A stretch of DNA of 64,000 bases from a virus. A model generated the notes under the pieces. The model made no database searches, was not told the origin of the DNA, and was given only the letters and a program-made list of their open reading frames with translations. The stretch spans positions 67,938 through 131,937 of IMG/VR virus record IMGVR_UViG_3300045988_114508; one strand, written 5' to 3'. Positions 43,852 to 64,000 of this stretch are shown here, piece after piece (within the stretch, counting starts at the first letter, position 1; each line of letters opens with the position of its first letter). Both the position numbers and the translations under genes were made by a program.

Positions 43852-44051
43852 TTCTTTTTATTTATTAAATTAAACAATCTACCTCTTTGTTCGGGCTCCG
43901 TATATTCAACCCATATATCGGCTGCCACATTTCTAAGAAATTCCATAAAGTCTTGATGATCCCTGTATTCAGCAGAATCAACTTTTCTCACAAAACTTAG
44001 AATTTCCTTTAACATCTTATTGTTTTCTTCAAGAAGTTCTCTGTCGGTCAT
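43848..44051 (-). CDS. hypothetical protein (67 aa)
   Basis: ORF. Confidence 0.4.
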   Translation of the reverse strand: MTDRELLEENNKMLKEILSFVRKVDSAEYRDHQDFMEFLRNVAADIWVEYTEPEQRGRLFNLINKKK

Positions 44052-44171
44052 AACCTTTCATATTTTCTTCTTAAGTCTTTACCTGCCCAGATATCATGAT
44101 CTTTTTCTTGTTCTTGATAAATCTTTGCTGCTTTTTCAATATCTTCTCTTTTCATAATTTTATACTTTAAT

Positions 44172-44420
44172 CTAACCTCCAATAAAATCATCGGGAGTTA
44201 TATATCCTACTGATTCCATACGGTCTATAATCTCATTCGCATTCATTTCTGAACCATTCCATTCAAGTATGATTTCATTTCCTGAAGCCATGCTCAAATT
44301 AGGCTCATTATCTCTAAATCCTGAGAAAGCAAGATGTTTCCAAATGGATTGCAGTGCAAGGTCCGCTTCGTTTTGTTTGTTTTCTGCTTTCTTTATGGCA
44401 TTTCTTAATTTTTTATTCAT
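44172..44420 (-). CDS. hypothetical protein (~82 aa from internal ATG; track ORF extends to 44507)
   Basis: internal Met start gives exact abutment with the upstream gene. Confidence 0.35.
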   Translation of the reverse strand: MNKKLRNAIKKAENKQNEADLALQSIWKHLAFSGFRDNEPNLSMASGNEIILEWNGSEMNANEIIDRMESVGYITPDDFIGG

Positions 44421-44422
44421 TA

Positions 44423-44683
44423 TCACCCCCTTTCTTCTTCGCATGGGAGCAAGTCCTCGATGTATGCCCAGCGCAAAATCTTGTTGTAATAGCAAGATTT
44501 TACCCATTCATATTCAGAACGCCAATCAATACAAATGCAGACATTTCCGTCTATATCCATGTGTTCAACCAAACAATCCTTTCCTGGTTCAGCTATGTCA
44601 CTCGGTTTGTGCCATACGCTGTTAATGCGCCACTCTGCACCAGCTTTAAAAAGAGGAACAGCATATTCTATATCTTGTTTCAT
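44423..44683 (-). CDS. hypothetical protein (86 aa)
   Basis: ORF. Confidence 0.4.
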   Translation of the reverse strand: MKQDIEYAVPLFKAGAEWRINSVWHKPSDIAEPGKDCLVEHMDIDGNVCICIDWRSEYEWVKSCYYNKILRWAYIEDLLPCEEERG

Positions 44684-44727
44684 GTCTTATTATTGTTTAA
44701 TTAATTTAAATATTTTTAGTTTTGAAA

Positions 44728-44973
44728 TTATTTAATATGCTTATCGGCTGGATTGATTATCAATCCATCGTCACATGAAGGGAATGATATGTTAGATTCT
44801 CCATTATCAAGATTAGTCAATTTAACCGTTCCAGCATATTCATCATCCACAAAAAACAATTGACCCGAAGAAACCACAAACCTGCATTGATATGCATTCA
44901 TCATTGTCCCAAGTTGTCTAATCTTAGTTTTAATCTCTAAAAGTTGAGCGTTGTTGATTATATTCTTATTCAT
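44728..44973 (-). CDS. hypothetical protein (81 aa)
   Basis: ORF. Confidence 0.4.
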   Translation of the reverse strand: MNKNIINNAQLLEIKTKIRQLGTMMNAYQCRFVVSSGQLFFVDDEYAGTVKLTNLDNGESNISFPSCDDGLIINPADKHIK

Positions 44974-44984
44974 ATTTTATTAAA

Positions 44985-45120
44985 GTTTATCTATTATTTT
45001 GTCACCCATTTCCTGCCATTCATCACTCACGCTTATAACCAATCCTATGACAGTGAATGATAATAACAACGTAAAAATAAGCCATAACAGAAAGCAGATA
45101 AAAACACATACATACCTCAT
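44985..45120 (-). CDS. small hydrophobic membrane peptide (~45 aa; below the 60-aa track cutoff)
   Basis: ATG at 45120 (minus strand); MRYVCVFICFLLWLIFTLLLSFTVIGLVISV... Confidence 0.25.
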
Positions 45121-45126
45121 GATTTT

Positions 45127-45873
45127 TTAGTTGTTAGATAAAAGCAAAATCGGTTCATTTGACTCCGCAATTGCTTTTATTTGTTCTGGATTGATAAAAC
45201 TCTTGACTTGTTCACTTATCTTACAAATAGATTTGATCATATCAACGAATAATTTCGAGGTACATTCGTTACATTCCACTTCCATTACCGGTTTATGTCT
45301 ATTGTATGATATACTTACTACACAATTCAGCCAGTGTGTATAAGTTCCTTTTTCTGTACTTAATCTATCGTATTCTACTTTTGTCTCTCCATTTCCATAT
45401 TCAATTACTCTTTTTAGAAATGGTTTTGCATAAATACTAAAACCGAAAGGTTGGGCATTTAAAGCATCTAAACGAGAAGTTCCCTCTCGCCATTCTCCGT
45501 TTTCACCACTCTCTGTCCATTCCTTAGAGGGGTTAGGGATAATATTTCCGTTTTTGTCATAGGAAAACATGCAATTCGTTTCCAGTTGATACTTAATAAC
45601 AGGCACTTCTTCTACTATTTTATAACTTAAACATCTCTTCAGAACTTCCCTGATTTGACTTTCCAAATCAGAAAGTGCTATACTATTGAAATATCCTTCG
45701 TTGCCTAATCTGTTTGTAGGTAATTTGATCCTATAAGAATGAATCTTATCCACATCTTCTTTTGACAATGTAGTGGTAAACACTCCTTCTTTGGTGACAT
45801 TCACTTTAATAGTTACAGACAAACTGTTATTAGCGTTCTTTTCCGTTATATTTAGTGTTGTTAATGCTGCCAT
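45127..45873 (-). CDS. hypothetical protein (248 aa)
   Basis: ORF. Confidence 0.5.
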   Translation of the reverse strand: MAALTTLNITEKNANNSLSVTIKVNVTKEGVFTTTLSKEDVDKIHSYRIKLPTNRLGNEGYFNSIALSDLESQIREVLKRCLSYKIVEEVPVIKYQLETNCMFSYDKNGNIIPNPSKEWTESGENGEWREGTSRLDALNAQPFGFSIYAKPFLKRVIEYGNGETKVEYDRLSTEKGTYTHWLNCVVSISYNRHKPVMEVECNECTSKLFVDMIKSICKISEQVKSFINPEQIKAIAESNEPILLLSNN

Positions 45874-45891
45874 AATCAGATCTTTTTAAAA

Positions 45892-46143
45892 TCAATTTGA
45901 ATAAATATAATGCATTCCTGCTTCATATACCTTATGTACATCAGGGTCATTCTTGTCTTCCGGTTCCAATTCACTCTCTTCACAAGTATAATCCCATTCA
46001 GAGTTGTAGTACATATCCTCGTCTGTTTTCTCCAAGGAACAATCTTTCATTAGATTCATATTTTCTCCCCATACTGCAACTTCTTGTCGTTGCTCTTCTT
46101 CCGTCATAAGGGATATTTTGTCTTTCAATTCTTTCCAGGTCAT
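45892..46143 (-). CDS. hypothetical acidic protein (83 aa)
   Basis: ORF. Confidence 0.4.
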   Translation of the reverse strand: MTWKELKDKISLMTEEEQRQEVAVWGENMNLMKDCSLEKTDEDMYYNSEWDYTCEESELEPEDKNDPDVHKVYEAGMHYIYSN

Positions 46144-46167
46144 GATTTTTAAAAGATGATTAATAGT

Positions 46168-46590
46168 TTATTCTACATCAAAAAGTTGATCTAACACCAA
46201 TAATTCGGCATCCATGTCTTCATCTTTCGGGAAACGAACTTTTATATTTCCAAACTTAGATGTCTTAAACAAGATGTAGGGGTTCATATCTTCGGCAGTC
46301 ACCGGCTTATACTCCTTAACTTCCGACATCTTGAGATACCAGTCACCTATTTTTACAAACCCAGAAAAGATAGAACACAGATGCGCTTTTACAGACTGTA
46401 TCTCCTTTTTATCTTTGAAAGGTATAATTTCGTCCTTTCCCCTTATCTTGATTGACAGAAAAGGACGAATGTTATCTGTTTCATTTTGGAACTTGAAGCC
46501 TGTTATAGCTTGCTTGGGGATTCTTCTTCCCATTAATATGAAATAAGCCATTGCGATAAGTTTATGTAAAATAGTATATAATTGTTTCAA
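46168..46590 (-). CDS. hypothetical protein (140 aa), contiguous downstream partner of the ABC-type ATPase
   Basis: start codon directly abuts the ATPase stop (46590/46591). Confidence 0.5.
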   Translation of the reverse strand: MKQLYTILHKLIAMAYFILMGRRIPKQAITGFKFQNETDNIRPFLSIKIRGKDEIIPFKDKKEIQSVKAHLCSIFSGFVKIGDWYLKMSEVKEYKPVTAEDMNPYILFKTSKFGNIKVRFPKDEDMDAELLVLDQLFDVE

Positions 46591-47388
46591 TTAAATAGAT
46601 GCAAATATGCGAATTTTGTTTAGATATCCTTCTGTCATCTCTATAAAATTCACACAATCTAATTTGCTTAACTTGTAAATCAACACTGGATTGTGTACTA
46701 TGGCTATAATTTGTGTTTGTGGTTTATGGAATGACAATACATTATAAATTTGCATTATGTTGTCAATGTCAAGATTTCTGTCTGGCTCATCCATGAGAAC
46801 CGTGTATTCAAAACTGCTTTTTGTTAATGTTATGCGGTTTCTTTTATAATACTTCAACAGGTTATCAATTCTTTTAATCCAAAACGCATTTGATTTTTTC
46901 TTGTATTCTACAAGATCTTGTATTGGAAACGTATAATCCTTTTGACCGAACATTAAATTGAAAAGTGATTCCAATGATAACACCACTTTCTCTCCATAAG
47001 ATCTTCTAATATTATTCACATACAAATCTAAATTGCTGATATTTTTCAATACGCTATCTCGATTCATCTCCGTAGATGGCAATAAACGGAATACTTTCCC
47101 TGCATAATCGGATAATATGTCAATCCCATCAAAAACCTTGTCATCATCATCAAATATAGATGGAAAATCCAGTGCCTCGATCGGCATTTCAGAGCACATA
47201 GACTTCTCGCATAACGCATACATTGATATGATATTAAGTAAGGTCGATTTTCCACTACCGTTTTCACCTATAATCACATTCACTCCTGGCTTGAAAATAA
47301 ATTCTCTGCCATTTTCAAACGCTTCTATGTCAGAAGCATATTCAAATGGAGTTTTTGTATTGTCTTTTATTTTTACCGATGTTATCAT
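46591..47388 (-). CDS. small ABC-type (AAA_21/SMC-like) ATPase
   Basis: Walker A IIGENGSGKSTLLNI; signature-like RSYGEKVVLSL (LSGGEK-type); Walker B VLMDEPDRNLD; H-loop IAIVHN. Confidence 0.65.
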   Translation of the reverse strand: MITSVKIKDNTKTPFEYASDIEAFENGREFIFKPGVNVIIGENGSGKSTLLNIISMYALCEKSMCSEMPIEALDFPSIFDDDDKVFDGIDILSDYAGKVFRLLPSTEMNRDSVLKNISNLDLYVNNIRRSYGEKVVLSLESLFNLMFGQKDYTFPIQDLVEYKKKSNAFWIKRIDNLLKYYKRNRITLTKSSFEYTVLMDEPDRNLDIDNIMQIYNVLSFHKPQTQIIAIVHNPVLIYKLSKLDCVNFIEMTEGYLNKIRIFASI

Positions 47389-47503
47389 ATGTAATCCTTT
47401 TTAAAAATCAATTACCGTCCGAACCATGTCTCCGATGTGCTTGTTGCCGGTGCCCGTGAGGCCACTGGAGAAGACCACGTACCACGCGACGGCCTGGCTG
47501 CTC

Positions 47504-48004
47504 TCAGTGCTGGACCAATACCACGTCGAGGGATTCTAATATGGTGTCTACAAACTCCGTTATTTTATCAACGGATTCTTTTGATAAGGTATATCTTCTC
47601 CAATCCCATCTAAAATGCGCTTTTGGGAGATTTTTAGTAGAATATTTTTCATTTCCGTCCTTGTTAGTCCATTCGTAATTATCCTCTGGATCCGCCACTT
47701 TTATCCCCGATTTAGGTCCGTTACGAAAGCTATATAGCATTCTTATAACCGATTCAAAATCCGAACCTATATCAAATAGCATATGATACACCTTGTTTAT
47801 TAAAGCCCTATCAGCTTGTTCCAAGTCTTCACCAAACAACTCTCTTACACTCCAATTTTTCATTTCTGAATAACGAATGAAATTAAGTTTCCCTTTTTCT
47901 ATATTAGGATTTTTTCTTGATAATACAAGCTCCAAATCTTTCACAAATGATTCTTTTAGCTTCTGTTGTCCTAACAAGGCGGTGTATTTGCTTACTATAT
48001 CCAT
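47504..48004 (-). CDS. hypothetical protein (166 aa)
   Basis: ORF. Confidence 0.5.
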   Translation of the reverse strand: MDIVSKYTALLGQQKLKESFVKDLELVLSRKNPNIEKGKLNFIRYSEMKNWSVRELFGEDLEQADRALINKVYHMLFDIGSDFESVIRMLYSFRNGPKSGIKVADPEDNYEWTNKDGNEKYSTKNLPKAHFRWDWRRYTLSKESVDKITEFVDTILESLDVVLVQH

Positions 48005-48228
48005 TATCCAAAGTTTTTTAATATTGCTTCAAACGAATCATATTTAATTCCTAATGTATCATGCGCCTTTTGGGATCCACATTCACATTCTCCTACCTTA
48101 TGTTCTGATCCACAATCGCATAAGTCGATCCCCAAATGGTTGACGCAGTGGTCGCAGCAGCAGGACTGGTGAAGCCATGTGGCATCACCAGCATCCAAAT
48201 CCAATTTTTCAAATGTTTCCCAAAACAT
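48004..48228 (-). CDS. Cys/His-rich metal-binding small protein (74 aa)
   Basis: CCCDHCVNHLGIDLCDCGSEHKVGECECGSQKAH. Confidence 0.4.
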   Translation of the reverse strand: MFWETFEKLDLDAGDATWLHQSCCCDHCVNHLGIDLCDCGSEHKVGECECGSQKAHDTLGIKYDSFEAILKNFG

Positions 48229-48298
48229 GCTATTCGAAGCTCCATTATCAAATCTGATAGTGACTGCACCGCATTTACATTTTGTATGTATTCTATTT

Positions 48299-48547
48299 TC
48301 ATATATGTTCCATTTTCAAAATTTCTGGGGACAGATATTCTTGTAACTCCAATTTGCGTATTGGAACAAGACAATCCAGATGTTTAGCATCCATTTCTTG
48401 CTTATCTTCATCTACCCACGTTAAAGTACCTTCACTGCTACATTCCGGGCATTTGTCAGCTCCACATGGAAGAAGCATTTGTGCTCCACATAAGACACAT
48501 CTTACCCAGTCTCCGTGCTGCACCCCTTCGTATGTTCTTGTTTTCAT
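48299..48547 (-). CDS. Zn-ribbon small protein (82 aa)
   Basis: CVLCG...CGADKCPEC. Confidence 0.4.
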   Translation of the reverse strand: MKTRTYEGVQHGDWVRCVLCGAQMLLPCGADKCPECSSEGTLTWVDEDKQEMDAKHLDCLVPIRKLELQEYLSPEILKMEHI

Positions 48548-48549
48548 AT

Positions 48550-48744
48550 TTATTGTTTATCATTTATAACATTTACTTCTTTACTCCACAAACGTCTCTT
48601 ATATATCGGAGTGATGCCGATCAGAATACCACTATCTTCGCCCCAATACTGAAGTATTTTGGACTCAATTTTATGATGCAATTCCTGTATTCCTCCTTTG
48701 TTTCTGTCATAAGGAGAAAAATCAGATAACTTTACCGTTTTCAT
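48550..48744 (-). CDS. hypothetical protein (64 aa)
   Basis: ORF. Confidence 0.35.
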   Translation of the reverse strand: MKTVKLSDFSPYDRNKGGIQELHHKIESKILQYWGEDSGILIGITPIYKRRLWSKEVNVINDKQ

Positions 48745-49475
48745 TTTTCTGGATTTTCAGCAGTTTCTAAAAGGCATTCATTGCCCTCAAAAGGAATGCA
48801 ACAGTCCCATAATGTTCCATTGGAACATTCATACTTATAAGACAATCCATCAGAATCGTCCACAATTTCCCTTGCAAACAAGCTGATATGCCATTCTTTA
48901 TCGTCCTCGTCTCTTACCAGCACTTTGTCAAACGGCTTAAAATCATATTTCGGCTTTTCTTCAATCCCGAAGAAGCGTTTCAGATATTCTTTTGCTTTAG
49001 GATTTTCGCTTTTCTTTAACGCTTTAATCATCTTCTGTTTTTCCGAATCTGTTGCAAGTCTATAACATTCTATGTGGTTTTCGTGTGCAGCCAAATTATC
49101 CGATATATTAAGACTTGTTCCCGCTGCAAGACTCGCATACAAAGATGTTAAATATTTCCCATGTGTATTTAAAATAAAAATATAACTTCCATCTTCGTTG
49201 CTTAACACATCTCCATCTTTAAACGTAGTATATTCTGGAACTTCAAGAAGGAGTCGATTTGCGCTGCTAAGTGCTTTTCCTGTAGCAGAAAACCAGTCTG
49301 CCGATACAGAAATCGAATGAATTACAACCAATAACGGACAATTTGACGAATTGTCTTCATATACGATTTCTGCTCTATTTTGTCCTTTCTCTGTCACAAT
49401 ACGACCTGCTATTTCCCCTATGTTTATTTTTTTCGCCGTATTTAAATCAAACGGAACAATAATTGAATTTTTCAT
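48741..49475 (-). CDS. hypothetical protein (244 aa)
   Basis: ORF. Confidence 0.5.
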   Translation of the reverse strand: MKNSIIVPFDLNTAKKINIGEIAGRIVTEKGQNRAEIVYEDNSSNCPLLVVIHSISVSADWFSATGKALSSANRLLLEVPEYTTFKDGDVLSNEDGSYIFILNTHGKYLTSLYASLAAGTSLNISDNLAAHENHIECYRLATDSEKQKMIKALKKSENPKAKEYLKRFFGIEEKPKYDFKPFDKVLVRDEDDKEWHISLFAREIVDDSDGLSYKYECSNGTLWDCCIPFEGNECLLETAENPEK

Positions 49476-49517
49476 ATTTTTCTTATTTTTTAGTTGTTAT
49501 GAAATAAGATGGGTTAC

Positions 49518-50579
49518 TTAAACCCATCCCAGTTGTTTTGCTATTCTCTCCATTTCGTCATATGCTATCCTATGACATCCAGCGGTTAGCAAATCGTTTT
49601 CGTACCGATTTAGACTCCACTGGTGACCGGTGACGTCCTCCACCAGACCGTGCCGAAACTCGGCGCCCCGGTGCATTGCCGACACAGCCCGCCACAGTTT
49701 TCTGGCTTCTGCTATTCCAATCTTTATCTGTTTACTTGTCTCAATAATATTTCCTTTTATACGGATCCAGGCGTTAGGTTTTTCACCAGGAATATAGAAA
49801 GGTGTATTCAAGAAATTGATTTCTCCTGACTTCCACTCTTCCAGTTTTTCATCAAAATCCTTGTAACGGGCTTCTTCTTCCTTTCTTAATCTCTCTAATT
49901 TTATTCTTTCTCTTTCTTCCTCACCCTTTCTCCATCTTTCAGATCTTTCTGAATACTTAATCCATGTACCTTCCCCGCAAACTTCATCAACAATCACATT
50001 TACGGTCCCTAACACTTTTAATCCTTGATGATCCAATAAAATTTGAAAGATGCGTTTTAATTCATGTACGTGCTTACGCTTGATACTATCTTCGCTCTTG
50101 GATAATTCATGATTGGTTCCAAGCCAATCATTAGCACTCTTTTTAAGGATACTCTTAGCAGTTCCCATGTTAAAGAACTGAATGTAATCCATCATATTCC
50201 CAAAAGCGCCCCAAATATCTGTATAAGATAATTCTGTTTTAGCTCTTTTGTATTTTTCAATAGACTTCTTAATTGATTCCAGTTTGCTGGCAACGAACCT
50301 CATATTACCAGTATCCGATATATTATCCCCTACACTGAAAACCATTGCCCAAGTTGGTATCGCATTACGAACATAGCATTGATGTTTGCTCGTGGTAGCA
50401 GAATAATAATCTTCATTTATCAGGTATGCTTTCTTCCCTTGTTTGTTTTTTACTATTCTTCCGACTTCAAAGTGATGCCCATAAGAATAAATACTTGTAC
50501 CTTCAAAGAAGAAATTGCTCCCTAATGCTGATTCTTCTTGTTCATGAGCCCACAAGTGAGCGACCATTGAATTGTTCAT
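49518..50579 (-). CDS. hypothetical protein (353 aa) with charged coiled-coil segment
   Basis: ORF; KGEEERERIKLERLRKEEEARYKDFDEKLEEW. Confidence 0.5.
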   Translation of the reverse strand: MNNSMVAHLWAHEQEESALGSNFFFEGTSIYSYGHHFEVGRIVKNKQGKKAYLINEDYYSATTSKHQCYVRNAIPTWAMVFSVGDNISDTGNMRFVASKLESIKKSIEKYKRAKTELSYTDIWGAFGNMMDYIQFFNMGTAKSILKKSANDWLGTNHELSKSEDSIKRKHVHELKRIFQILLDHQGLKVLGTVNVIVDEVCGEGTWIKYSERSERWRKGEEERERIKLERLRKEEEARYKDFDEKLEEWKSGEINFLNTPFYIPGEKPNAWIRIKGNIIETSKQIKIGIAEARKLWRAVSAMHRGAEFRHGLVEDVTGHQWSLNRYENDLLTAGCHRIAYDEMERIAKQLGWV

Positions 50580-59520: not shown

Positions 59521-60006
59521 ATCAATATGTATTTATTTGTTAAACAATATCACCTCAATATATCACCTCTTTACAACGCAAAGAGGCAAAAGGTATTGCC
59601 ATACAATACACCCAACGGGAGTATATATATAGCTTCATTATGTAACACCAATATTCTCGCTTGAATACGGTGCAAATATACAACCTTTTTCGGTATTACA
59701 AATATATATACTATCTTTTTTTTGTTAACTTGTATTAATTTCGATTCTATTATCTGATTATCAGCAAGTTGCAAAACACACAAGAGCAGTACTATACGCG
59801 TACATTAATATGTAGGATATATGTTTATTTAAGTGGCTTATAATCAATATGTTATAATAATACATTGATTATCAATAATTTAAATAAACTGTTGATAATC
59901 AGCGAGTTTGTAGGTTTGAGATAAAAACGCGTTTCCGGTTTTCCAGCGAAGGGGGTGTGGGGGAGAAAACGCGTTTCGGGGGCGGGAGGTTCGTGATAGG
60001 TACCCC

Positions 60007-60150
60007 CTCTCTCCCATCACATAAACATTTTTAATCTCTCTCCCATCACATAAACATTTTTAATCTCTCTCCCATCACATAAACATTTTTAATCTCTCTC
60101 CCATCACATAAACATTTTTAATCTCTCTCCCGTAACATAAACATTTTCAC
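60007..60150. repeat. tandem direct repeats: ~4.5 copies of a 29-bp unit (CTCTCTCCCATCACATAAACATTTTTAAT), no spacers
   Basis: units begin at 60007, 60036, 60065 and 60094, with a degenerate copy at 60123. Confidence 0.9.
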
Positions 60151-60168
60151 CTTTCTTCCTCATCACAT

Positions 60169-60205
60169 AAAAAAAAGCAGGGAAGCCTATTTAGGACCTC
60201 CCTGC
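60169..60205 (-). terminator. rho-independent terminator for the minus-strand operon ending at 60237
   Basis: minus strand reads GCAGGGAGGTCCTAAATAGGCTTCCCTGC followed by T8. Confidence 0.65.
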
Positions 60206-60236
60206 TTACTACAACCAACAATATTTTAAAATTACC

Positions 60237-60629
60237 TCACTTACTTTCCCATATTAATTTATCTCGTACTTTTCCTTTCTTTACTTCTTCACACTTTCCT
60301 GCCACCCATCCAACGAGGTAGCAGAAAGGTTCTGATTTCATTACTTTTTCTCCTAAGAAATCAAATGCATTGAGAGACACATGGGCTGCCTCGTGTGAGA
60401 CTGTGTTAAAATCAATAACGTTCTTATTAATAAACCATATCAAAAATCCTGTGCAAGGATCTGATTTGCATCCTCCATATGGTACGGTTATGGTTGCGCC
60501 CATACTATTATCTATGTAACTAAAATCGTTATTGAAACACTCTACCATACCAGAAACATCTTTACCTACATATATCCACAGATTAAAGGGATAGACTTCT
60601 GGGGTAAATTGATACAGTTCGCACTTCAT
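60237..60629 (-). CDS. small HExxH-motif protein (putative zincin-like metallopeptidase domain)
   Basis: TVSHEAAHVSL contains HEAAH. Confidence 0.35.
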   Translation of the reverse strand: MKCELYQFTPEVYPFNLWIYVGKDVSGMVECFNNDFSYIDNSMGATITVPYGGCKSDPCTGFLIWFINKNVIDFNTVSHEAAHVSLNAFDFLGEKVMKSEPFCYLVGWVAGKCEEVKKGKVRDKLIWESK

Positions 60630-61582
60630 TGTGATATAAGTTTATGTTTTTCTATAAATTCCCTGAATCTGATATCCGTGACATCAAGCACAAACCCAGC
60701 AGCACCGGCATGTCCTCCACCACCGAATCTCTTACTTACCTCACAGCAATCCGCGCTGTCTTCTACGCATTCATAAAGAGAGAACCGGACTTTACCACCT
60801 GGCATGATACAAAATGGCATCAAGGCTTTAATTTTTCTACCATCTAACCAGTCTCGTGTAAGAGAATCAAATACCTTAGAACTAAATTCGGTGGTATTCA
60901 TCGCCACTACCTTCACCTCATCAACATACGCTTCGAACGAGCACGCACTTACCTCTTGTTCGTTTTTACCAGCCATGTAGTTAATTATAGCACGTCCTTC
61001 TTTAGCGAGATCATAAAAAATAAGATCAACCTCATTGTCCTTCATATTTTCTTTAAAGTGATCATACAAATACGACAATGCTATTAATACATTGAGTCTT
61101 ATTTTTGATCTCAAGGCATACTGGATAGCTACTACCGTATCCCATCCTAATTCAGAATCTTTATTCCACACATCGTAGTCTGACAGGCACCGGACGATCG
61201 CCGGCACCTTCCCCATCAGCAGGTCGGCAGCAAGTGCGCACGCACCAGTACCGACTCTCCTAAGCCCTGGAACAGTGAACCCCCATGTCTTACTATCTTC
61301 TATAATTCCCTTGTGATGATCTATCCACATCAGGCTCTTTCCTTCATCAAGCCACTTTTTGAAAACCGTTTTAGAATCGGCTCCGAAAGACACGTCAAGA
61401 ACATAAACAACATCTAAGTCACGCACTTGGTCAACAACTTTCTTAACATCATCTTCATACGAATACGGGATATAAACAACATCCTTGTTTTTACTGTGTT
61501 CATACATAGTTGCGATGGCTGCCGACACAACGCCATCTAAATCCGATTTATGATAAACTATCGCTGTTTTCTTTACTTTCAT
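60626..61582 (-). CDS. DHH-DHHA1 family phosphoesterase (NrnA-like nanoRNase / pAp phosphatase type)
   Basis: motif I YHKSDLDGVVSAA, DHH motif MWIDHHKG, DHHA1 GGGH motif FGGGGHAGAAG. Confidence 0.7.
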   Translation of the reverse strand: MKVKKTAIVYHKSDLDGVVSAAIATMYEHSKNKDVVYIPYSYEDDVKKVVDQVRDLDVVYVLDVSFGADSKTVFKKWLDEGKSLMWIDHHKGIIEDSKTWGFTVPGLRRVGTGACALAADLLMGKVPAIVRCLSDYDVWNKDSELGWDTVVAIQYALRSKIRLNVLIALSYLYDHFKENMKDNEVDLIFYDLAKEGRAIINYMAGKNEQEVSACSFEAYVDEVKVVAMNTTEFSSKVFDSLTRDWLDGRKIKALMPFCIMPGGKVRFSLYECVEDSADCCEVSKRFGGGGHAGAAGFVLDVTDIRFREFIEKHKLISQ

Positions 61583-62426
61583 GATACAAACTTGTATATT
61601 TGATACTACCGTCTTTTAATGTTTCTATTTTTATAACATCACTATATAAATTGAAATTCTGATCTTTATCAATCCTTATATTCAGCACATCATCTACGGT
61701 TGCAGTTTTTCCATCATCGGTTTCAATCTTATAAAAATCTTTTAAAGTGATTTTTATATTAAGACCAACACCATATGGATTTTCAAGGATATATATATGA
61801 TCGTTGTTGAGAATAACTATTCCTTCACTTGTATGTTCTTTGGACAATACATACTCTAAATCAAGATCTTTACCAAGAAACTGAATAACGTCCATATAGT
61901 CAACGCCGGCCTTCTCAGCGCATACCTTATCCGAATCAGAGAACTGCCCTGGAAGACCACTGGCGTCCCCGACCATCAACGAACATCCCTTAAGTTGACT
62001 AAAGTTCATACCACGCATTACCGTGTCTTTACACTTCATAAGAATATCATCAATCATGCCAGTGTTAGGCTTCCTCATCGGATCTTGTTCGTCATTTGAA
62101 TAACACAACCTTTTTTCATATAGGACGCCTCTTATGCCTCTCTTTACCGCCAGATCATGTACGGACCTCAGTACGTATTCTATCTTAGCTTCAATATCAG
62201 CTCCAGAAACAAACCCAGCTTCTACTCCTCCTTGATTGCTTACGATAGCAAATACCTTAACACCGTTCTCCTGCATGAGGTCAAGAGCCTTATTCACCAC
62301 ATCCATCTTAATCCTCATATCTGTCAAGTCTGTAGCGAACGTATTCCCAGAAGCGGTTTCTATAAGCGTCCCGTCAAAATCAAATAGCAGTATTCTTTTG
62401 TTTTTAATATCTATATCGTTCATCAT
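61548..62426 (-). CDS. HAD-IIIA-type phosphatase (GmhB/PNK-3'-phosphatase-like) with C-terminal beta-rich extension
   Basis: motif I LLFDFDGTL, motif II IVSNQGG, motif III RKPNTGM, motif IV MVGDASG; no P-loop kinase motif. Confidence 0.65.
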   Translation of the reverse strand: MMNDIDIKNKRILLFDFDGTLIETASGNTFATDLTDMRIKMDVVNKALDLMQENGVKVFAIVSNQGGVEAGFVSGADIEAKIEYVLRSVHDLAVKRGIRGVLYEKRLCYSNDEQDPMRKPNTGMIDDILMKCKDTVMRGMNFSQLKGCSLMVGDASGLPGQFSDSDKVCAEKAGVDYMDVIQFLGKDLDLEYVLSKEHTSEGIVILNNDHIYILENPYGVGLNIKITLKDFYKIETDDGKTATVDDVLNIRIDKDQNFNLYSDVIKIETLKDGSIKYTSLYHESKENSDSLS

Positions 62427-62833
62427 TTTTCACTCCTACTCTTTTTTATTACCCTAAGCTGAAGACGGAATAGATTACTGTCTTCTTTTATAATATCATA
62501 CACAGCATAAGAATTTTCTCCTATATCCCATCCAAGATAATCGAGCAGGTCTTTTAAGTAAATTCTCTTGTATTTTACACCAAGGTTATTTACCTTAAAC
62601 GATCTCTCGTCTTCAACATCAGAAGCAGCCAGATAAAAAACCGTATTTTCAACTCCTTCAAATATCTTCCCTTCTTCTAAGCCGATAACAACCGCATCCG
62701 TTACCCCCATCCAATTCAAATTATCGACAGAGATAGTCATTATCTTACTTTTGCTGATTGACAACTTCCGGATCTTGCTTTCTTTAGTTTTAGATCCTAA
62801 AAAATCCTTACTGTTAAAAAAATCTACTTTCAT
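62423..62833 (-). CDS. hypothetical protein (136 aa)
   Basis: ORF overlapping the HAD gene start. Confidence 0.45.
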   Translation of the reverse strand: MKVDFFNSKDFLGSKTKESKIRKLSISKSKIMTISVDNLNWMGVTDAVVIGLEEGKIFEGVENTVFYLAASDVEDERSFKVNNLGVKYKRIYLKDLLDYLGWDIGENSYAVYDIIKEDSNLFRLQLRVIKKSRSEK

Positions 62834-62913
62834 GGTTATAATATTTTATATTGATGTTGCAAACATACATAATAATATCAACAATACTATTTAAAAACAG
62901 TTAAAATATGATA

Positions 62914-64000
62914 TTATAATGCTGGTAATTTTTTAAACTGCTCAGGACTTACTTCGGATATGGTCCCACGGAAAGCAAGACGCGAACCGTAGGTCAAATC
63001 CTGGCTCGACGCATATTTACCAGCACCCGAATACGCCACGCCGCCATACTCATTCGAATTAAAATAGGAGCGAGCCAAAACAAGGGAATTGTCCGATGCC
63101 TGATAATAACGATCTGAATAATATTTTAAATTGCTACCGCCAACTCTTGTAGGCACCACATCAAAAAACGGACCATTTTCGGCTGCTATATTTTTTATCC
63201 AACCGCTGACAGTCCCGGCGTTCACGTTGCGAATCGAACCGTCAGGATCGGTTATTTTCCAAACTCGGTTATTTATTTCTACACCTTCAACAAATTCACA
63301 GATACCACCAAATACGCCTTCAAGTCCTAAGCCACAAACGTACTTTGAATATTCGTTTTCGGTATCCGCACCACCGGTTGCGTTGCTGCTTCCCGTTGTT
63401 GTAGCCGGATCACAGGTTGCGCCACCGGGTCCTAATACGCCTTGCAGGTTACGTGTTTTGTATTTAGCATACAACATCATAGCAATCACGCAATGTTGTT
63501 GGAAATCTATCACCTGGTATCCGGTACCACGTGCTTTTGCGTAACTTCTGAAATCAGATAATGATACGTTAGTCGTAGGAGTAACATCACTCCAGCTATA
63601 TAATCTATTCAAAGATACATATCCTTTATATGCTCCAACAAGAGATTTCGGGACATGGATGTAAGTGCCGTCAATATCATGATCAGCAAAATGATAAAGA
63701 AATCTATTATCATCCACCTTATACCATTTATACCAAAATTCTAAGAAAACGACCATCACATCACCTTCTGGTCCGGTAAGATTAGCCGGACTACCATCAA
63801 GATAGAAGTTACTGTCGTTATCATCTAATCTACATACAAAAACCTCTCCTCCTCCCATAGCGCTCTTGCAAAGAACTCTATAGAAGCCATTGGTAATCAA
63901 CCTATATAAAAAATCACTGTCTTCGCTTATTGTTATATTAGCCGGATCTGATACAGATTTATCAAAAACTATAAAATTATCAGTAGGGAGACCGCCCCCC
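62914..64000 (-). CDS. hypothetical Gly/Thr/Ser-rich protein, N-terminally truncated by the window end (>=362 aa); possible structural/fibre-like protein
   Basis: frame stays open through 64000; track start at 63900 is a TTG; GGATCDPATTTGSSNATGGADTENEY low-complexity segment. Confidence 0.5.
   Translation of the reverse strand, partial: GGGLPTDNFIVFDKSVSDPANITISEDSDFLYRLITNGFYRVLCKSAMGGGEVFVCRLDDNDSNFYLDGSPANLTGPEGDVMVVFLEFWYKWYKVDDNRFLYHFADHDIDGTYIHVPKSLVGAYKGYVSLNRLYSWSDVTPTTNVSLSDFRSYAKARGTGYQVIDFQQHCVIAMMLYAKYKTRNLQGVLGPGGATCDPATTTGSSNATGGADTENEYSKYVCGLGLEGVFGGICEFVEGVEINNRVWKITDPDGSIRNVNAGTVSGWIKNIAAENGPFFDVVPTRVGGSNLKYYSDRYYQASDNSLVLARSYFNSNEYGGVAYSGAGKYASSQDLTYGSRLAFRGTISEVSPEQFKKLPAL

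Follow-up and report, generated by a model that had tools for sequence, protein, structure and literature searches.

We analysed a 64,000-nucleotide stretch of viral DNA (IMG/VR record IMGVR_UViG_3300045988_114508, positions 67,938 to 131,937; hereafter the window), in which a minus-strand gene cluster encodes a HAD phosphatase next to a DHH/DHHA1 phosphoesterase. The window is collinear with the human gut phage csAssE-Sib (OR575929.1; 151 kb) at 86–95% nucleotide identity, spanning that record from ~87.8 kb, across the record end, to ~4.8 kb. The structural genes of csAssE-Sib carry crAss-like annotation terms. Conservation close to the window was assessed in 80 IMG/VR loci whose DHH protein is at least 89% identical to the window protein (hereafter the csAssE-Sib lineage); denominators vary by gene. 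On the minus strand, positions 62833–60175 hold four close-packed open reading frames (ORFs), in transcription order orf136, HAD, DHH and HExxH, and one strong terminator. The features of this unit are as follows.

62423..62833, minus strand: orf136, 136 aa, opens the unit; restricted to this lineage
61548..62426, minus strand: HAD protein, 292 aa
61857..62426, minus strand: HAD-IIIA phosphatase core, aa 1–190, of the PNKP/DNA-3'-phosphatase type (PF08645, TIGR01662)
61548..61856, minus strand: optional extension at the HAD C terminus, aa 191–292; tblastn matches from outside the lineage end before it
60626..61582, minus strand: NrnB-like (COG2404-type) DHH/DHHA1 phosphoesterase, 318 aa, PHROG 4771, motifs intact
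60237..60629, minus strand: HExxH mini-protein, 130 aa, putative zincin-like metallopeptidase bearing the HExxH motif
60175..60207, minus strand: intrinsic terminator closing the unit, stem-loop and T-run
62860..62867, minus strand: candidate Bacteroidota-type −7 element TATGTTTG (TAnnTTTG), read by eye, a weak lead

The reading frames are tightly joined, with a 4-nt ATGA overlap at both the orf136/HAD and the DHH/HExxH junctions and a 35-nt overlap between the HAD and DHH ORFs. The terminator starts 30 nt past the last stop codon and comprises a 13-bp stem (7 GC pairs) and a 7-nt loop, followed by TTTTTTTATG. At the other end of the unit, the −7-like element TATGTTTG lies 27 nt 5' of the orf136 ATG, inside an 80-nt AT-rich spacer; the strict Bacteroidota −33/−7 promoter pattern (19-nt spacing) had no match upstream of orf136. 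An earlier sequence-only reading had described three overlapping minus-strand genes behind one terminator, with DHH as the first. The strand, the overlaps and the terminator agree with that description. The gene count does not, as orf136 is a fourth member that shares an ATGA overlap with the HAD start, and transcription runs from HAD through DHH to HExxH. All motifs quoted in that reading were found (FDFDGTL, SNQGG, RKP and GDASG in HAD; WIDHHKG and GGGGHAGAAG in DHH), including HEAAH in the 130-aa HExxH ORF, which lies where it had been placed.

The HAD–DHH pair is flanked by the lineage-specific orf136 and by an unrelated, optional HExxH cassette. In the GenBank record of csAssE-Sib, the two enzymes are named 'polynucleotide kinase, 3 phosphatase' and 'phosphodiesterase (NrnA)', and they lie between hypothetical proteins. 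We found no second DHH or HAD copy elsewhere in the window. Searches of the window gave no Rfam match and no tRNA genes, and a PADLOC scan of the four unit proteins gave no match.

The DHH protein matches PHROG 4771 'DHH phosphoesterase' (8e-28). The hidden Markov models suggested earlier as a check on the family, PF01368 (DHH) and PF02272 (DHHA1), gave 25.3 and 20.6 bits, respectively, each just under its gathering score (28.1 and 25.9). The catalytic positions H11, D14, D16, D63, D88-H89-H90, D137 and GGGH 288–291 are invariant in an alignment of 47 homologues that reaches down to ~30% identity. The AlphaFold2 (AF2) model of the protein (mean predicted local distance difference test score, pLDDT, of 94) matches DHH/DHHA1 structures with a probability of 1.0. 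The top Foldseek match is 6mtz; Foldseek scores are similar across all DHH families, so the fold cannot discriminate among them.

Profile comparison was more selective. Searching the PDB with the 47-homologue alignment returned the DHH protein of Helicobacter pylori G27 (6mtz) as the best match, over both domains (1.5e-10), followed by Borrelia burgdorferi DhhP, TM1595, NrnA/Rv2837c and archaeal RecJ2 (N-terminal domain only). The NrnA/Rv2837c entries matched at the DHHA1 end only (7e-7), and bacterial RecJ gave no significant match (E = 0.35). A direct phmmer search of the DHH protein against the PDB yielded only marginal matches. One homologue (P0096; 31% identity, E = 7.6e-27) is labelled NrnB/COG2404 by the Joint Genome Institute (JGI), and 6mtz is probably the H. 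pylori NrnB, since a further nanoRNase seems to be missing from H. pylori. As to RecJ, the protein scored 17.8 bits on TIGR00644 (cutoff 396.9), and its 318-aa model has two domains without an OB fold. The enzyme, previously called NrnA-like, lies nearer to NrnB/COG2404. On sequence comparison, it is an NrnB-like member of the DHH/DHHA1 superfamily with all catalytic motifs.

NrnB proteins (COG2404; Bacillus subtilis YngD, H. pylori and Campylobacter jejuni NrnB) share with the window enzyme the two-domain DHH + DHHA1 architecture, a length of ~300 aa and the motif series DxD, D, DHH, D and GGGH. The NrnB enzymes of B. subtilis, B. licheniformis, B. thuringiensis and H. pylori are 3'-5' exonucleases that all process 2–4-mers, with substrates comprising 2–5-mers plus longer RNA (PMC10570053, PMC12709177). 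For B. subtilis NrnB, cleavage of a DNA 5-mer is about as rapid as that of RNA, and the characterised NrnB enzymes leave c-di-AMP and 3'-phosphoadenosine 5'-phosphate (pAp) unhydrolysed (PMC10570053, PMC12709177). NrnB clades without a long C-terminal extension favour short substrates (PMC12709177); the window enzyme, like the short-substrate clades B and C, lacks the long extension of clade A. The phage clade to which it belongs is essentially phage-borne: it occurs on more than 555 IMG/VR viral contigs, with thousands of member sequences, and only 23 relatives, all distant (≤30% identity), were found in 185,579 species genomes.

The HAD protein matches Pfam PNK3P (PF08645) over residues 12–178 (E = 1.5e-20; 73.9 bits, cutoff 22) and NCBIfam TIGR01662 (HAD-IIIA; 50.9 bits, above the cutoff of 44.6). 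Its best specific NCBIfam model is TIGR01664 (DNA-3'-Pase), at 70.5 bits and under the equivalog cutoff of 107.65; histidinol-phosphatase models scored far under TIGR01664. Among solved structures, the phosphatase domain from mammalian (mouse) PNKP (1yj5; 4e-6) is the best relative, matched over aa 11–88, which hold motifs I and II. By these scores the protein appears as a relative of the TIGR01664 DNA 3'-phosphatases and not as a certified equivalog. Its earlier assignment to a GmhB/PNK 3'-phosphatase subtype keeps its PNK part, supported by PF08645, and loses its GmhB part, as both GmhB models fell far below cutoff (TIGR00213, 17.9 bits against 149.6; NF006506, 24.2 bits against 178). The T4-type HAD_PNKP model PF25109 also stayed below its cutoff (13.5 against 27.6 bits). 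The sequence has no Walker-A motif, in agreement with the earlier remark that a kinase P-loop is missing.

The HAD motifs are FDFDGTL (I), SNQ (II), RKP (III) and GDASG...FSDSDK (IV). In an alignment with phage HAD homologues (39–45% identity), DGT, NQ, KPNxGM, GxASG and FSDxDK are invariant. PNKP/Tpp1-type DNA 3'-phosphatases have in common with the window protein the DxDGT nucleophile, (S/T)NQ, RKP and GDxxG...FSxxD. The window protein differs from them in standing alone, without a kinase or FHA domain, and in carrying an optional 100-aa C-terminal extension. This extension (aa 191–292) shows an alternating hydrophobic pattern consistent with β-strands, and it has no homologues detectable beyond the lineage, where tblastn matches to HAD end near aa 186. 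Within the lineage, 47 loci have the extension, in several alleles, and 30 lack it; short HAD forms of 191 or 213 aa are abundant.

Within the csAssE-Sib lineage, the HAD–DHH linkage holds across divergent alleles. Of 80 loci, 78 retain intact DHH motifs, and 69 of 77 have the HAD core in full; this core occurs as two alleles (~97% and ~69% identity). The three genes do not form a conserved module: the HExxH gene is intact in 30 of 71 loci, partial in 5 and absent from 36; it is also solitary in unrelated phages, and HAD–DHH adjacency is found in the csAssE-Sib lineage only. The first gene, orf136, is present in 75 of 77 loci, again as two alleles (~99% and ~62% identity). It has no Pfam, PHROG, NCBIfam or PADLOC match, and its homologues amount to 24 protein clusters in 5.8e9, all at least 59% identical and all of them the lineage's own copies. 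Apparent HAD–DHH fusions were considered and set aside. The fusion P0009 was rejected as Rosetta-stone evidence: it is a single-member cluster, and one stop-to-Tyr change suffices to produce it, the HAD and DHH ORFs of extension-less forms lying in one frame, four codons apart. P0015 and P0019 are deletion fusions without DHH motifs I–III.

To place the genes outside the lineage, we surveyed a sister lineage from the DHH side (80 loci; DHH 36–40% identical to the window protein) and from the HAD side (80 loci). DHH lies immediately after a 486-aa superfamily 2 (SF2) helicase in 75 of the 80 DHH-side loci, within a block where a PD-(D/E)XK nuclease stands upstream and, downstream, a dATP/dGTP-diphosphohydrolase-like gene. 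In the csAssE-Sib lineage, other small genes fill this post-helicase slot. In the DHH-side survey, HAD was within 10 kb at 2 of 80 loci and HExxH at none; conversely, DHH was within 10 kb at 3 of the 80 HAD-side loci. A gene of the HExxH family (25–32% identical) stands ~8–9 kb downstream of HAD, on the opposite strand, at 76 of these 80 loci (L177–L256), remote from HAD and DHH alike. At least 19 sister-lineage contigs carry both HAD and DHH, which places the two in the ancestral early/replication gene set; in the three of those contigs for which the distance was calculated, HAD and DHH share a strand, with DHH ~9–12 kb upstream. HAD, DHH and HExxH are thus old residents of this phage group and are neighbours only in the csAssE-Sib lineage. 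Separately, 40 of 80 sister-lineage loci have a small 117-aa DxDGT (HAD-like) protein, without a Pfam match, directly upstream of the PNK3P-type HAD.

Contexts in more distant genomes are of a similar kind. The HAD homologue of crAssphage ctbg_1 neighbours a kDNA-ligase-like gene, a deoxynucleoside monophosphate (dNMP) kinase, ThyX and dUTPase, and that of MT835492 neighbours PolA, a gp5.9-like gene, ThyX and a dNMP kinase. In another phage, a DHH homologue stands at the end of an ERF/YqaJ recombination block, and on one cellular contig a homologue lies amid Ham1, IMPDH and SAICAR-synthase genes, that is, purine and nucleotide housekeeping. Both enzymes belong to the phage replication, recombination and nucleotide-metabolism gene set.

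From the observed gene structure, family assignments, intact active sites and genomic contexts, we infer the substrates, the exonuclease polarity, how the two activities are coupled and what physiological role they have. We tentatively favour, at somewhat less than even confidence, a co-transcribed, lineage-specific pair for 3'-end unblocking and oligonucleotide degradation in phage nucleic-acid metabolism. The PNKP-type HAD would strip 3'-phosphates from DNA or RNA fragments, leaving a 3'-OH. Such 3'-phosphate ends would come from metal-independent nucleases or from damage, and would block 3'-5' exonucleases, polymerases and ligases. Starting at the 3' end, the NrnB-like enzyme would then degrade these unblocked fragments, short single-stranded oligonucleotides, to 5'-mononucleotides. 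Short oligonucleotides would thereby be cleared, and the (d)NMPs would return to the pool used by the phage thymidylate synthase, dUTPase and polymerase; the csAssE-Sib genome also has a thymidylate synthase and a dUTPase. Because a 3'-phosphate blocks a 3'-5' exonuclease, we propose that co-expression of the two enzymes has been selected in the csAssE-Sib lineage.

The sequence-only reading assumed that phages hardly need a nanoRNase, which is a weak premise. Phage T4 encodes the oligonucleotide exonuclease DexA and the 3'-phosphatase PseT. T4 is likewise a large lytic phage that combines a 3'-5' exonuclease degrading oligonucleotides with a HAD 3'-phosphatase, and each of these is conditionally dispensable. 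The two systems differ in that DexA is a DEDD-family and not a DHH enzyme, that T4 Pnkp carries a fused kinase and has RNA ligase as its partner, and that the T4 genes are non-adjacent.

Several observations weigh against end unblocking coupled to oligonucleotide degradation. The substrate assignment for the phage DHH clade comes from comparison with NrnB at the level of sequence, and the clade, phage-borne unlike NrnB, is only ~15% identical to 6mtz. In the S-x-R segment before GGGH, the phage clade has SLY(E/x), with the near-invariant Y270 replacing the Arg that is present in 6mtz and in NrnA-type proteins; with Tyr in this place, the specificity of the phage enzymes may differ. In the HAD protein, ~19 of 75 lineage copies replace the motif IV Asp of GDASG (D154) with S (10), N (6) or G (2); these are copies of the divergent allele (~69% identity) plus a few others, and this variability raises doubt as to whether phosphatase activity is always retained. 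FSDSDK, downstream of this Asp, is kept in every lineage copy. As a result of the substitution, roughly a quarter of the lineage may have a phosphatase of changed activity or none.

The locus itself adds further points of this kind. An insert of ~1.5 kb, encoding a ~415-aa IscB-like protein with RRXRR (PF14239, 2e-59) and HNH domains, sits exactly at the HAD/DHH boundary in 7 of 69 lineage loci, which indicates that tight coupling is not required. It is found at L013:8730–9975 and also in L026, L041, L043 and L050, with decayed copies in L028, L042 and L065; several copies have internal deletions or frameshifts. Natural deletion variants in the lineage truncate or fuse HAD and DHH, marking the genes as accessory. 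HAD–DHH adjacency is confined to this one narrow lineage. Finally, phage replication, recombination and nucleotide genes are interleaved, and context cannot separate salvage from DNA repair.

This last point bears on a role in DNA-end processing, which we regard as possible and on balance doubtful. Here HAD would restore the 3'-OH at strand breaks, and DHH would act as a RecJ-like single-stranded DNA exonuclease together with the phage helicase and nuclease. The affinity of HAD to DNA 3'-phosphatase models and structures (TIGR01664; 1yj5) fits this role, as does the position of its homologues near a ligase-like gene and PolA. The same holds for the place of DHH beside the SF2 helicase, with the PD-(D/E)XK nuclease upstream, in 75 of 80 sister loci and at the close of the ERF/YqaJ block elsewhere, although DHH no longer occupies the helicase position in the csAssE-Sib lineage. 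The DHH protein itself argues both ways. It has a weak N-terminal RecJ match, and archaeal RecJ2 and RecJ–Cdc45 are among the profile and fold matches; yet it comprises a DHH and a DHHA1 domain only, without the OB fold or extra domains of RecJ, bacterial RecJ is a poor profile match, and the nearest relatives are short-oligonucleotide enzymes.

A counter-defence function, as raised in the sequence-only reading, appears improbable. In this proposal, DHH would degrade immune messengers, such as cyclic oligoadenylate (cOA), cGAMP and other signals of CBASS, Pycsar or Thoeris, or the linear products formed from them, and HAD would strip terminal phosphates. The pair would destroy immune signals, their linear or 3'-phosphorylated products, or the oligonucleotides left by defence RNases, with HAD unblocking ends for the exonuclease. 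Were this so, the recruitment of DHH beside HAD in the csAssE-Sib lineage would reflect selection for coupled activity. Some DHH/DHHA1 enzymes do hydrolyse c-di-AMP (GdpP, DhhP and Rv2837c are among the fold matches), and Iyer et al. 2021 proposed such a role for jumbo-phage DHH enzymes (PMC7824862). An archaeal membrane DHH–DHHA1 nuclease is cited in that article as degrading cyclic tetra-adenylate (cA4), which would also speak for the proposal. Further in its favour are the phage-borne distribution of the DHH clade and the accessory nature of the genes in a mosaic locus. The window enzyme has its fold and catalytic motifs in common with GdpP, DhhP/Pde2, Rv2837c and Sulfolobus MAD, at similar Foldseek E-values, but these c-di-AMP- and cOA-degrading enzymes are weaker profile matches than 6mtz, and the window enzyme is without their membrane, PAS or GGDEF parts.

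Its closest characterised relatives, the NrnB proteins, leave c-di-AMP uncut. The conserved DHH slot in relatives is post-helicase, in a replication block and not in an anti-defence island; HAD is of the DNA-3'-phosphatase type and elsewhere lies amid nucleotide-metabolism genes; and the three-gene module is unconserved. The unit also shows no homology to validated anti-signalling proteins: a Pfam scan of its four proteins returned PNK3P/HAD and DHH/DHHA1 only, with no homology to Acb1, Apyc1, AcrIII-1, Acb2 or Tad1/Tad2. Pfam contains Acb2_Tad1 and Tad2-like models, and these matched neighbour genes in two other contigs whose DHH homologues are 38–45% identical. An Acb2/Tad1-hairpin gene (L004:11779–12024) lies ~5 kb past one homologue and a Tad2-like gene (L005:9244–9783) ~2 kb past the other, in the same gene block. 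This proximity (2–6 kb) counts for the counter-defence proposal. A keyword search of the literature for a link between phage DHH enzymes and anti-defence gave no relevant match, and our literature search returned nothing useful on csAssE-Sib, 6MTZ or the DHH enzymes of crAss-like phages. The defence-evasion idea is an already published conjecture (Iyer et al. 2021, PMC7824862), and we found no link to immune evasion here.

Healing of RNA (tRNA) 3' ends, with HAD removing a nuclease-left 3'-phosphate and DHH trimming the end before re-synthesis or ligation, is very unlikely: PNKP-type HAD phosphatases act in phage RNA repair (PMC7824862), and csAssE-Sib has tRNAs, a Ro60-like protein and an annotated polyA polymerase/CCA-adding enzyme, but no polynucleotide kinase or RNA ligase is annotated across its genome, the window HAD falls below the T4-type model and lacks the N-terminal P-loop kinase of the T4-type bifunctional Pnkp, and the window holds neither tRNA genes nor the csAssE-Sib nucleotidyltransferase gene. 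The earlier remark that no ligase or kinase partner is visible extends to this near-identical genome. The csAssE-Sib 'polyA polymerase/CCA-adding' gene (OR575929.1 137063–137725) was considered as a possible link and rejected, as a comparison with window positions 44000–50000 revealed no counterpart and tblastn gave only a spurious 34-aa match. The early region is mosaic between the window and csAssE-Sib, and the Ro60-like protein and six tRNAs of csAssE-Sib fall outside the part covered by the window.

Returning to the proposed pair for 3'-end unblocking and oligonucleotide degradation, the locus is an ordinary accessory nucleic-acid-metabolism pair, both of whose enzymes are already annotated in GenBank (csAssE-Sib). 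Its broader relevance lies in the DHH clade, which is abundant in human-gut crAss-like phages and essentially absent from cellular genomes. Establishing its role, be it oligonucleotide recycling, helicase-linked recombination or signal removal, would lead to better annotation for a gut phage group that is very common. Being phage-specific and common in the human gut, the clade is a reasonable target for enzymology.

The HExxH gene is an optional cassette, independent of HAD and DHH. Its product belongs to PHROG 1365, a phage-wide family; exhaustive searching yielded 319 representative clusters, almost all of them free-standing proteins of 115–140 aa. H79, E80 and H83 are invariant across the family and E100 nearly so. 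In the AF2 model (pLDDT 94), a small sheet precedes two long helices that bear HExxH and E100. In its helix-borne motif, the conserved Glu on the next helix and the small β-sheet before them, the protein resembles small phage zincin-like metallopeptidases. It matches no Pfam or PDB family at significance; three family members have a weak SprT-like Pfam signal, and its structural neighbours in BFVD are mostly unnamed, with a few labelled PolyVal MPTase or SprT-like. Homologues stand before a helicase (LoVEphage), in the gap between portal and minor capsid genes (Porphyromonas phages) and among small genes (crAss-like cr4_1). HExxH is best regarded as an accessory gene in its own right, for a putative zincin-like metallopeptidase.

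The surroundings of the unit provide a few additional observations. Past the terminator, ~650 nt (59521–60174) contain no coding-strand ORF of more than 70 aa and no Rfam or tRNA match; in the csAssE-Sib counterpart of this stretch, only a 55-aa protein is annotated. Just upstream of the operon, on the early-gene strand, a 328-aa ORF (62914–63900, minus strand) resembles the C-terminal end of tail proteins (phrog_14959, 5e-46; phrog_5302 'tail protein', 4e-27). It is kept in about half of the lineage loci, and csAssE-Sib has an opposite-strand GH5 glycosyl hydrolase in its place. Further away, a 265-aa protein of the early block (46591–47388, minus strand) has an N-terminal P-loop of the SMC/RecF/ABC type (SMC_N, AAA_21, AAA_23). 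A similar AAA_15/AAA_23 gene lies immediately before the DHH gene in contig L004.

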